From the NCBI GenBank assembly GCA_021648085.1, contig JAKITS010000001.1, positions 388,948 to 452,947 on the forward strand: 64,000 nucleotides of DNA, read 5' to 3'. Source of the DNA: Candidatus Magasanikiibacteriota bacterium (lineage in GTDB: Bacteria; Patescibacteriota; Patescibacteriia; Magasanikbacterales; UBA922). The first letter of the stretch is position 1; the number at the start of each line of letters is the position of its first letter. The notes under the pieces were generated by a model. That model saw nothing but the letters and a program-made list of their open reading frames with translations. It searched no databases and was not told where the DNA came from. Positions 6,324 to 8,811 of the stretch are shown in pieces. The translations under genes were made by a program, and so were the position numbers.

Positions 6324-7475
6324 TTATACAATTATACCTTTTACATCTCCTGTAGATGTTCTGGAGCCAGTTTTTACACTAGCAGTCCCGTCGGCATTCA
6401 ACTTTATAAGAATACTTCCACAAGAGCCTGGAACATATCCAGCTTGCTGTGCATAAGTACCTTTATACATTAAATAAGACGGGCAAATTATTTTTCTTTC
6501 AATCTTTTTTTCAATTCTAAATCTAACTAATTTTCCATTCTGGAATTCTCGCCTAGGTACAAGTCTAGATACACTGTGTGATTTTTTATCATGGACATGC
6601 CCCATTATAAAAAAGTCAGCCAGTATAAACTGCCTAGCTTTTCCAACAGCGTTCAACTTTCCGCCCGGAGTATTAGAACCACTTCTTCCATGAGAAAGAA
6701 AAAAAGTCCACCTAAAACTACGCCAAGTAAGATCTAAAAGTACAGGCCCCATAAAATATGGGATTCCTAAAAATCTAGAAACTTCACGCAATGGACACAT
6801 AAGTGTTTTGCGAGTAGTTCTGTGCTCATGATTTCCAGGGATCATAACCAAAGTTTTATGTGCAACAGATCCTATTTCCTCTTCAAAACCAATTCTTTGC
6901 TCATCTGGTGTCATATTTTGCTCTGCCCAAGCAATGCCACCGGCAGAATCACTAAGTGCATTTTCCAAAGAATCACCACCAAACAAAGCAAATCTATTTG
7001 GTCTTCGTCTTACCTCTTCAATATCAAATCTAAACAAATCCAAATCACATCTATTATGTCCATAATGGATATCATAAAACGGTGTTATTTCTATATCTTT
7101 TGCAGGTTTGTTGTTTAACCCCAAAACATCATCTGGAATTATAACTCTATGATAAAAACCCCTCTCCCCTAAACCATCTGAAGTTGGCAAAAAAATAAAA
7201 GCTCTGTCCGAAACAATACTTTTTTTCTTTTCTTTTGGAACATATAAATAAACCATGTTTCCATTATGAGGTCTCCAATTTATAATATTCCCACCAGCTA
7301 GATGCTGTTTTGACTCTTTAAGTCTAGAGATACAGTACTCAATTTTTTCAGAATCTATAGATAATTTTTGCGATAATTCAGAAACTGTATGACCAGTCTT
7401 TTCCAAAAGTTTTAATATTTCCTTAACTATTTTTCTAGTTTCTTTTGCCTTTTCACGAGCTTCTTTTTTACTCAT
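6324..7475 (-). CDS. Winged-helix (N-terminal) plus calcineurin-like metallophosphoesterase protein, paralog A (canonical motifs)
   Basis: The metallophosphoesterase motifs are DIHYGH, FGGDSLEN, GNHEH, SHGRSG and GHVHD. The start is set at the internal Met MSKKEAREKAKE (7475), which is preceded by a strong Shine-Dalgarno AGGGAGGTG. The ORF-track start at 7559 would overlap the upstream gene. Confidence 0.7.
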   Translation of the reverse strand: MSKKEAREKAKETRKIVKEILKLLEKTGHTVSELSQKLSIDSEKIEYCISRLKESKQHLAGGNIINWRPHNGNMVYLYVPKEKKKSIVSDRAFIFLPTSDGLGERGFYHRVIIPDDVLGLNNKPAKDIEITPFYDIHYGHNRCDLDLFRFDIEEVRRRPNRFALFGGDSLENALSDSAGGIAWAEQNMTPDEQRIGFEEEIGSVAHKTLVMIPGNHEHRTTRKTLMCPLREVSRFLGIPYFMGPVLLDLTWRSFRWTFFLSHGRSGSNTPGGKLNAVGKARQFILADFFIMGHVHDKKSHSVSRLVPRREFQNGKLVRFRIEKKIERKIICPSYLMYKGTYAQQAGYVPGSCGSILIKLNADGTASVKTGSRTSTGDVKGIIV

Positions 7476-7488
7476 CTGACACCTCCCT

Positions 7489-8811
7489 TTAGTGAGTTGC
7501 TTCAAATGTATTGTCTGAATAAATGATGCACTCAACACGACCAGAAACTGGGGGTGCATATCCTTTTATTTCTCTAATTGATCCTGCAAACTTCCTAAAA
7601 CCAGGACAAATTATTGAATAAGCTATAGACTCTCTTATTCTATTGTTTGTTGGATCTGCAGAAAAAACAACAGCATCGTCTATAATAGCCTCTTCCAAAT
7701 GTCCCATAATAGTAAAATGTGGAAAATTCTGATTTACAGTAACCTTTAAAACAGCATTGAGTTTTGATCCATCCAGTCTTGCACCAGACCTGCCATGAAG
7801 AGCATAAAACTCAATTGGCACCATTGGATCTTTCCAATAAATATCTGCACGCACAGGACGAAAAGTGTGATGAATTCCCAAATCTCTACAAACAGACCTA
7901 AGAGGTTCTATACCATCTATTTTTGAATACTTATTTTCTCTATCTCCAGACTGTGCCCACAAGATTTTGTGTGCAACCGGAGCAAGTATGTTTCTAAGAT
8001 TTCTTCTATATTCTTCTGCTGTATATTTATTATACAAACTTCCACCAATTATATTTCCATTTAAAAATACAAATACATAAGGCTTGGTGGCAGCCCTCAG
8101 CAATACTTGCTGAAAAGCTTCCAAATCACAAAGATGATCGCCAAATGTCACAGAATCAATAGGAATAATCCTAATCGCCGAATCTGCTAAATTTTTGGAA
8201 AAATCTAAATCTTGAGGAAAAGTAATTGCCAAATAGTCATTATCATTTTCAGAATGTCTAACCGTAAAAACTCTTTCTTTCACTTCTACACAACCATTTA
8301 CAACGCGCTCAAAATAATAAGTTTTTTGCTGATAAGAGCTTATTCCTTCTTTAAGTGTGAAATCTTCTGGGCTGTTTACCTGAAATTCTTCAAAAATTTT
8401 TAAACCTTCTTCTCCAAACTTACTCTCAACAGCTTCCAAAGTTCTAGCTCTACTCAAAAATCCAAAAACTTTTTCCACCAATTTTTCTCTTTCAGTTTTA
8501 GCTTTTTCTGCATTTTTTCTTTCTATTTCTGCTTTTTCTTCTTCTGTTAACTCTTTAGTTTTAACTTCTTCAACATCAACAGAATCCAAAGTACTTTTAG
8601 TCTCACCATTAGAATCTATGAATTTTTTCCTTTTCTTTTCCCAACCAATCTTGAGTTTTCTAAGATGATAACTCAAATTTATTTTATTTAATCCTGTTAA
8701 CTCTAACAGCTTTAAATACTTTTGAATTTCTAAATAATCAACATCTCCAAAATTATCTACAATAATTTTTTTCACCTCTGCTGAGGTTATTCTCTTTGGT
8801 CGTCTTACCAT
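7489..8811 (-). CDS. Winged-helix plus metallophosphoesterase-like protein, paralog B (degenerate metal-binding motifs)
   Basis: The 440 aa product shares the core of paralog A (FGDHLCD, HGRSG...GSKLNAV, IMGH, ICPGF, GY.P). However, the GNHE motif is GDRE and GHxH is GHLEE. It has an N-terminal basic/HTH-like region and a charged coiled segment. A Shine-Dalgarno AAGGAG lies upstream. Confidence 0.65.
   Translation of the reverse strand: MVRRPKRITSAEVKKIIVDNFGDVDYLEIQKYLKLLELTGLNKINLSYHLRKLKIGWEKKRKKFIDSNGETKSTLDSVDVEEVKTKELTEEEKAEIERKNAEKAKTEREKLVEKVFGFLSRARTLEAVESKFGEEGLKIFEEFQVNSPEDFTLKEGISSYQQKTYYFERVVNGCVEVKERVFTVRHSENDNDYLAITFPQDLDFSKNLADSAIRIIPIDSVTFGDHLCDLEAFQQVLLRAATKPYVFVFLNGNIIGGSLYNKYTAEEYRRNLRNILAPVAHKILWAQSGDRENKYSKIDGIEPLRSVCRDLGIHHTFRPVRADIYWKDPMVPIEFYALHGRSGARLDGSKLNAVLKVTVNQNFPHFTIMGHLEEAIIDDAVVFSADPTNNRIRESIAYSIICPGFRKFAGSIREIKGYAPPVSGRVECIIYSDNTFEATH

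Follow-up and report, generated by a model that had tools for sequence, protein, structure and literature searches.

At positions 6324–8811 of the window, by which we mean the whole 64,000-nt stretch of contig JAKITS010000001.1 analysed here, two minus-strand open reading frames (ORFs) encode paralogous helix-turn-helix (HTH)/winged-helix metallophosphoesterases (MPEs): gene B, with a dead active site, lies upstream of gene A, with an intact one. We give a probability of roughly 55% to the reading in which B-A is a vertically inherited two-gene operon of the candidate phyla radiation (CPR; Patescibacteria) for an obligately heteromeric DNA-binding MPE that has one active site and is directed at DNA. 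Gene B (7489–8811, called from its ORF and from 100% identity to the deposited protein) corresponds to L3J07_02035, the 440-aa catalytically dead paralog, and gene A (6324–7475, called from its ORF and start codon) to L3J07_02030, the 383-aa catalytically competent one. Both are labelled hypothetical proteins in the deposited Candidatus Magasanikbacteria genome, with translations 100% identical to ours.

A direct BLASTP comparison aligned A and B at 27% identity over 260 aa (E = 9e-25), and a profile–profile comparison, based on 40 A-type and 26 B-type homologs, matched them with a probability of 100% (E = 1.7e-76) over 324 columns, the N-terminal winged-helix region included. Together with structural models, these comparisons confirmed that A and B are full-length paralogs, each with a winged helix followed by a calcineurin-like MPE fold, as an earlier model-generated annotation made without database searches (hereafter, the sequence-only reading) had proposed for the tandem genes. 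The AlphaFold2 (AF2) models, with predicted local distance difference test (pLDDT) values of 86.7 for A and 85.5 for B, matched MPE structures in Foldseek at a probability of 1.0. PolD DP1 was the top solved structure for both (E = 8e-9 for A and 1.7e-7 for B), followed by LpxH, the B-subunits of Pol delta, epsilon and zeta, Rv0805, purple acid phosphatases and Mre11; predicted viral structures fit better, with phage MPEs at E = 3e-18.

In the AF2 model of A, a long helix and a winged helix (aa 1–80, nt 7236–7475, minus strand, as are all the domains given here) precede the MPE domain (about aa 126–365, nt 6381–7100), which is also supported by Foldseek matches and by the phage family phrog_7339. 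The N-terminus of A resembles the MarR/ArsR winged helices ZitR and CzrA in direct Foldseek matches, and the winged helix of B (about aa 119–170, nt 8302–8457) is probably MarR/ArsR-like as well, judging from its homology to A and from its own model. B starts with an extra N-terminal HTH (aa 10–52, nt 8656–8784), followed by a charged, disordered linker that includes a long helix (aa 60–118, nt 8458–8634) and, after the winged helix, by the MPE-like domain (about aa 205–440, nt 7492–8199; AF2 model and Foldseek). The charged coiled insert that the sequence-only reading had noticed in B does exist, but it is not part of the catalytic core: it is the segment at aa 60–118, between the extra HTH and the winged helix.

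A Pfam search, proposed at the outset as a check for Metallophos and winged-HTH domains, returned no Metallophos match for either protein, even at E ≤ 1, and only weak HTH_24 and HTH_20 matches, while the models still place both proteins in the MPE fold. Relatives do reach PF00149, either as precomputed matches (P0027–P0040) or at 25–27 bits (P0073, P0085 and L031); the family is therefore a divergent branch. The phrog_7339 hidden Markov model (HMM) matched A at 1.7e-28 (aa 120–365) and B at 4.2e-9 (aa 224–397). We thus assigned the fold from the motifs, phrog_7339, the PF00149 matches of relatives and the structural matches, and not from Pfam matches of A and B themselves. A search of A and B against NCBIfam gave no useful family, and a single-sequence search of the PDB sequences gave nothing; the profile search of the same database yielded only a marginal DP1 match (E = 0.012) and a designed HTH repeat protein.

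The active sites of the two paralogs differ sharply. A keeps all five metal-site motifs, namely D135-x-H137, G167-D168, G214-N215-H216-E217, H262-G263 and G292-H293-V294-H295, and these (DxH, GD, GNHE, HG and GHVH[DE]) show no or almost no variation in 40 homologs. The motifs quoted in the sequence-only reading, including GDRE and GHLEE of B, were all found in the translations. A reads DIHYGH, GGD, GNHE, HGRSG, GGKLNAV, IMGHVHD, ICPSY and GYVPG, whereas B reads IDSVTFGDH, NGN, GDRE, HGRSG, GSKLNAV, IMGHLEE, ICPGF and GYAPP. The B protein of the window thus has other residues in place of the motif I His, the motif III Asn-His and the second His of motif V, which leaves the two-metal ligand set incomplete.

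The same degeneration runs through the whole B family. We gathered CPR loci by exact-protein look-ups and a scan of GTDB species genomes, which left 18 non-redundant loci. In all 18, the B ortholog is without the motif I His, the motif III Asn and the second His of motif V, and the motif III His survives in a single ortholog; motif III appears as GDRE, GPLE, GC[LF]E and similar variants, and motif V as GHL[EKQ], SHI[KR]D or GHVGD. Of the top 150 library representatives, 26 are B-like, and every one of these shows identical motif losses. The mean pairwise identity of the MPE domain between orthologs is 40% for B and 47% for A, and B has strongly conserved blocks of its own, e.g., AHKILWAQ. Because the MPE-like domain and these blocks are so well conserved, we read B as a maintained pseudoenzyme and not as a decaying gene.

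Strict pairing is the second pillar of the proposed heteromer. B-type and A-type genes are direct neighbors in 18/18 loci, with B first and both in the same orientation, so the pair is kept as a unit in relatives, and its fold is the predicted one. The B stop and the A start overlap by 4 nt in eight loci and by 1 nt in two more, and most of the remaining gaps are ≤30 nt. A neighbor-joining (NJ) tree groups all B sequences into a single clade whose branching mirrors that of A, and the pairwise divergences of A and B correlate with r = 0.92. In the library protein P0069 (781 aa), B and A are naturally fused within a single ORF, found on one contig in a CPR-type chromosomal context (yceG, enolase, DUF5654, PGK).

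Genomic patterns of this kind are classical for proteins that work as subunits of the same complex, and they strongly argue for a physical association of A and B. The fixed tandem arrangement, the single B clade, the co-divergence and the B-A fusion point to an obligate heteromer with one active site; since A and B are always inherited together, they probably make up one single-active-site DNA-binding enzyme. The sequence-only reading had suggested such a heteromer from the active/inactive pairing, and the conserved dead site, the stop/start coupling, the single B clade, the co-divergence and the fusion all speak in its favor, with the complex itself deduced from these genomic patterns.

The metagenome-assembled genomes (MAGs) that carry the pair are titled Magasanikbacteria, Uhrbacteria, Falkowbacteria, Niyogibacteria, Parcubacteria and Paceibacterota. 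A small number of bins carry the titles Saccharibacteria, Gammaproteobacteria or Binatia and show the synteny of the Parcubacteria loci. Four loci (L012, L013, L014 and L021) come from MAGs titled Gammaproteobacteria or Binatia; in L012, L013 and L021 the cvpA-metK/B-A/uvrD synteny is identical to that of Parcubacteria SG8_24. The contigs in question probably represent CPR DNA that was wrongly binned or labelled.

For the wider family, a profile search of 1.84 billion representatives recovered 5390 proteins at E ≤ 1e-3, of which 645 reached E ≤ 1e-30. Some family members, which we call A-long, have an extra HTH and a winged helix in front of an active domain, and others consist of the catalytic domain only (185–300 aa). 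The N-terminal additions across the family are all of DNA-binding types (Myb-like, resolvase-type HTH_7, HTH_11 and HTH_23), and the relatives have acquired them independently. Hint/LAGLIDADG inteins interrupt catalytic motifs, right after GNHE or just before GHVH, in P0084, P0150, P0155, P0188 and P0200. In mycobacteriophages, intein-bearing proteins serve DNA modification or nucleotide metabolism (PMC5050341). Our literature search on the A/B family in CPR found nothing relevant.

Relatives are also present on 132 viral contigs of IMG/VR. The gene was always single in the 80 viral loci that we fetched, none of which had the tandem pair, and in the NJ tree the long viral forms are placed among the A sequences. 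Their commonest conserved neighbors are large terminase (TerL) and portal proteins of several unrelated families: TerL of phrog_2 at position +2 or of phrog_38 at −1, and portal proteins of phrog_156 at +4 or of phrog_64 at +1 or +2. Many of these viral loci are close relatives from one metagenome, so the raw counts overstate independence; there are nevertheless at least five distinct arrangements. In L034 the gene order is TerL-portal-methyltransferase-MPE-phrog_1221-protease/capsid, in L031 TerL lies directly downstream of the MPE gene, and Moorella phage MTATph1 has the order TerL-x-MPE-x-portal. In Slash-like Bacillus phages the MPE gene lies four genes upstream of TerL, and in an Eggerthella phage it sits between two large unannotated ORFs, which, judging by size and position only, we interpret as TerL and portal. 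This context suggests that the phage relatives could be an unstudied accessory phosphoesterase of DNA packaging or head assembly.

Two details of the phage arrangements deserve mention. Among viral loci L031–L110 and phage records L007, L027 and L029, the MPE gene sometimes stands exactly between TerL and portal. Some phage MPE genes lie directly upstream of TerL, in the slot where the small terminase would be expected.

The phage proteins of phrog_7339, auto-annotated as “DNA repair exonuclease” and exemplified by Bacillus phage Slash gp29 and Moorella phage MTATph1 CDS0003, belong to the same HMM family as A and B. They share the five motifs and align with the CPR pair at 24–33% identity over the catalytic domain in tblastn, and some viral forms of this kind have the winged helix and the extra HTH in common with the CPR proteins. 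The phage genes are, however, single, mostly limited to the catalytic domain and placed in terminase/portal modules, whereas the CPR genes form an active/dead duplicate in a housekeeping setting. To our knowledge, none of the phrog_7339 phage proteins has a tested function.

In the CPR loci the pair itself is the only constant feature, and its neighbors are varied, lineage-specific housekeeping blocks that include metK, IMPDH, a ClpB-like gene, cysS and glycolysis genes. One synteny block has cvpA-metK divergent from B-A and then uvrD, and another has the order IMPDH, B, A, ClpB-like, PCMT, yceG; in the window, cysS is divergent from B-A, which is followed by pilM. Eight of the 18 loci (L001, L003, L009, L011–L013, L016 and L021) have metK (S-adenosylmethionine synthetase) no more than 3 kb from the pair, in two orientations, and five have a UvrD-type helicase no more than 6 kb away. 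Both adjacencies are real and lineage-confined, and offer a weak hint at function. Beside the pair, none of the 18 loci has integrase, terminase or defence genes, and no polymerase gene figures among the conserved neighbors.

The sequence-only reading had placed the pair directly upstream of pilM. That holds in the window but not as a conserved feature, as no other locus among the 18 has pil genes beside the pair; the pilM adjacency is incidental and particular to this genome. We rejected the idea that the pair works with pilM or type IV pili, because pil neighbors are missing elsewhere and a terminator stands between A and pilM.

Under the favored reading of B-A as a heteromeric DNA-directed enzyme, the complete two-metal centre of A would hydrolyse a phosphoester bond. 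B would have arisen once, by duplication of an A-like gene, and would have lost its metal ligands while its fold stayed under purifying selection. As a non-catalytic partner, it would complete the dimer and add one or more HTH/winged-helix DNA-binding domains. The target would be DNA, with the enzyme serving as an exo- or endonuclease or as a DNA-end phosphodiesterase in chromosomal DNA metabolism, and the CPR pair would share its ancestry with the single-gene phage enzymes of terminase/portal modules. We infer DNA as the substrate from the repeated gain of HTH domains, the phage packaging context, the inteins and the structural neighbors DP1 and Mre11, and a housekeeping role is likewise deduced. 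The UvrD-type helicase near the pair in 5/18 loci would also suit a DNA target.

Several findings weigh against this reading. MPE folds cover a wide range of substrates, namely DNA, RNA, cyclic nucleotides, Ap4A, lipid precursors and phosphoproteins. The Foldseek TM-scores to solved structures are low (0.33–0.43 of query length), and LpxH and Rv0805 are nearly as good structural matches as DP1. Winged helices can mediate protein–protein contacts too. The phage packaging context concerns distant relatives (≤36% identity) and need not transfer to the cellular pair, and the UvrD adjacency, restricted to one synteny block, may be just inherited gene order.

Among known DNA-acting MPEs, Mre11/SbcD offers a parallel, with its motifs in the same order and its action as a dimeric nuclease at DNA ends. 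Its Foldseek matches (E = 6e-4 and 1.4e-4) are weaker than those of DP1 or LpxH. Moreover, Mre11 and SbcD are homodimers with two active sites that need the Rad50/SbcC ATPase and a capping domain, whereas no such partner adjoins A/B: neither the window nor any of the 18 loci has an SMC-like gene adjacent to the pair, and for want of this ATPase gene A/B does not qualify as a member of Mre11/SbcD.

A parallel to the helicase adjacency comes from Pseudomonas putida, whose MPE nuclease of the Lhr-MPE operon (PDB 6nvp) is a bacterial MPE-fold DNA nuclease that weakly matches B (E = 2.6e-4). It is encoded beside a helicase, an arrangement that resembles the UvrD adjacency of A/B in 5/18 loci. Unlike A/B, it is one small protein that has neither HTH domains nor a dead paralog.

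Mycobacteriophage Bxb1 gp47, an MPE-fold recombination directionality factor of phrog_221, sets a precedent for MPE folds in DNA-directed and possibly non-catalytic roles. It has been described as a phage MPE-fold protein in DNA transactions, with inteins often at the catalytic motifs (PMC5050341). We ruled out that A belongs to the gp47 family, given that gp47 falls in phrog_221 and not in phrog_7339 and that hhalign with the profile of A gave a probability of 1.7%.

A bolder version of the DNA-directed reading is, in our view, a tentative and rather doubtful extension of it. According to this version, CPR would have domesticated a phage packaging phosphoesterase and turned it into an asymmetric DNA nuclease with a dead subunit, in which each subunit has DNA-binding domains. 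The product would be a core DNA-end-processing or proofreading factor, filling the role held elsewhere by SbcCD, RecJ and DnaQ-type enzymes, and B would be a bacterial analogue of the inactivated scaffold domains in eukaryotic polymerase B-subunits.

With LpxH and Rv0805 structurally nearly as close as DP1, the main rival is a small-nucleotide substrate combined with a regulatory role. A/B would then be a transcription regulator whose winged helices sit on an operator, while the MPE domain of A hydrolyses cAMP, c-di-AMP, Ap4A or (p)ppGpp and thereby couples nucleotide levels to expression. The MarR/ArsR-like winged helix of A and the weak HTH_24 and HTH_20 matches would suit such a protein, as would the presence of the cAMP phosphodiesterase Rv0805 and the pyrophosphatase LpxH among the structural matches, the UniProt label “ApaH type” on several viral structural matches, and the divergent orientation of the pair relative to metK in six loci and to cysS in the window. 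However, the phage relatives reside in terminase/portal modules and many are without any HTH, and the neighbors vary by lineage, which leaves no conserved regulatory target. Upstream of B we found no convincing operator-like palindrome, the sole inverted repeat there being a 13-nt AT-rich one, and a permanently dead paralog would be unusual for a one-component regulator. Taken together, we consider the regulator unlikely.

The identity of the top structural match raises the possibility of a bacterial counterpart of the DP1/polymerase B-subunit module, in which a proofreading 3′-5′ exonuclease and a scaffold would work with a replicative or repair polymerase. PolD DP1 and the eukaryotic B-subunits (Pol delta p50, Pol epsilon p59) are the closest solved structures to A and B: DP1 leads for both proteins, the inactive B-subunits of Pol delta, epsilon and zeta come next, and the profile search of PDB sequences again yields DP1, weakly. 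DP1, which is active, and the inactivated B-subunits form one family that uses phosphodiesterase domains as scaffolds in both states, and B, with its dead site, has a parallel in the inactivated eukaryotic subunits. Yet the AF2 models show a helix and a winged helix followed by the MPE domain, with no barrel of the oligonucleotide/oligosaccharide-binding (OB) fold that defines the DP1 group, and on these grounds we ruled out membership in it. The low TM-scores, the nearly equal score of LpxH, a sequence similarity of E = 0.012, the lack of a conserved polymerase neighbor and the location of the phage relatives in packaging rather than replication modules make a functional equivalent of this module improbable as well.

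The pair might alternatively lie outside the core functions, as a remnant of a phage or mobile element or as a defence or toxin module not yet described. Its nearest named family is the phage family phrog_7339, and the relatives on viral contigs, the viral long forms among the A sequences and the inteins within the family point in the same direction. All 18 loci nevertheless have housekeeping flanks and lineage-specific conserved synteny with no integrase, terminase or phage gene adjacent; A and B co-diverge along host-lineage groupings; and the tandem pair occurs in no viral locus. The comparison with the phosphoesterase effectors of defence systems that the sequence-only reading had recommended revealed no link: PADLOC returned only noise-level N-terminal matches for A (E ≥ 0.019) and none for B. 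We rejected a defence system or prophage remnant on the genomic context and the absence of a credible PADLOC match, and rank this option below the polymerase-type module. Least probable of all is a phosphoprotein phosphatase (PPP-like) A with B as its regulatory pseudophosphatase subunit, an idea encouraged by the PPP-like GNHE motif, by PP1, PP2A and PPZ1 among the fold matches and by pairs of a pseudophosphatase with an active phosphatase in other families, but contradicted by the weakness of those matches (E = 1e-3 to 1e-2, far behind nucleic-acid and nucleotide enzymes), by a motif V (GHVH[DE]) of the Mre11/CpdA type instead of the PPP pattern, and by the poor fit of the HTH additions and the phage packaging context.

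Local signals in the window are those of a compact, self-contained operon. The longest ORF of A begins at 7559; its true start is the ATG at 7475, which is preceded by a Shine-Dalgarno (SD) site and agrees with the deposited 383-aa protein. With this start A and B do not overlap and are separated by a 13-nt spacer: the B stop TAA (7489–7491) is immediately followed by the SD site of A, AGGGAGGTG (7480–7488, minus strand), and then by the A start codon. The SD site of B, AAGGAG, lies at 8820–8825 on the same strand. Both were identified by reading the sequence and by an SD comparison across the window, a crude count over its 50 long ORFs, in which A reaches a match of 7 nt and B one of 6 nt; only eight ORFs reach ≥6 nt. 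That most neighboring genes lack such strong SD sites had been remarked from the letters.

A terminator scan located an intrinsic-terminator-like hairpin at 6289–6312 (minus strand; 9-bp stem, 6-nt loop, T run), 12 nt past the A stop codon, which closes the B-A operon. Beyond it, an extended −10 box, TGgTATAAT, can be read at 6258–6266 (minus strand) ahead of an ATG at 6218, and pilM is probably a separate transcription unit. Of the terminator/promoter that had been proposed between the pair and pilM, the terminator was thus recovered by a scan, while the putative promoter comes from reading the sequence and was not listed by the two-hexamer promoter scan. With a hairpin, then an extended −10 box and then the pilM start downstream of A, and with the tight B/A spacing, B-A looks like a bicistronic unit of its own. 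A search of the flanks for RNA elements or riboswitches found none in Rfam at E ≤ 1.

The pilM ORF as called (5088–6299, minus strand) starts at a TTG at 6299 that falls inside the B-A terminator hairpin. The likely start is the ATG at 6218, 27 codons downstream and behind the extended −10 box, and the PilM_2 match begins only from residue 74 of the ORF. On the same strand as the pair, the genes downstream are pilM, a receiver-domain protein, a pilin, a prepilin peptidase and ligA; the upstream neighbor, cysS, is divergent.

Two further ORFs of the window caught our attention. Directly after cysS, an 839-aa ORF (10332–12851, plus strand) contains many tandem repeats of ~35–40 aa with the motif ...FLESFEVVEAAKIGF..., has a non-repetitive C-terminal half and gave no Pfam match; the GC content falls to 25.5% in the 10–12 kb bin of the window. 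An 854-aa protein (13435–15999, plus strand) combines TrwB/VirD4-type coupling-protein and HerA-like ATPase domains near the type IV pilus genes, and might have a role in DNA transfer or uptake.

Overall, A/B is a real, strongly conserved and uncharacterised CPR pair, in which a winged-helix MPE is joined by a dead paralog. This is a new architecture within a well-known superfamily and not a new kind of system, and the chemistry is conventional. The two families are without a Pfam or NCBIfam model, and defining both would improve the annotation of many genomes. CPR genomes are very small and hold many conserved genes without known function; the persistence of an unbroken B-A pair across several CPR lineages makes it likely that the pair does something the cells need. 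Should A/B prove to be an asymmetric DNA nuclease, it would supply a missing piece of CPR DNA repair, recombination or DNA salvage, and would represent a clean bacterial case of an enzyme–pseudoenzyme heteromer in the metallophosphoesterase superfamily.

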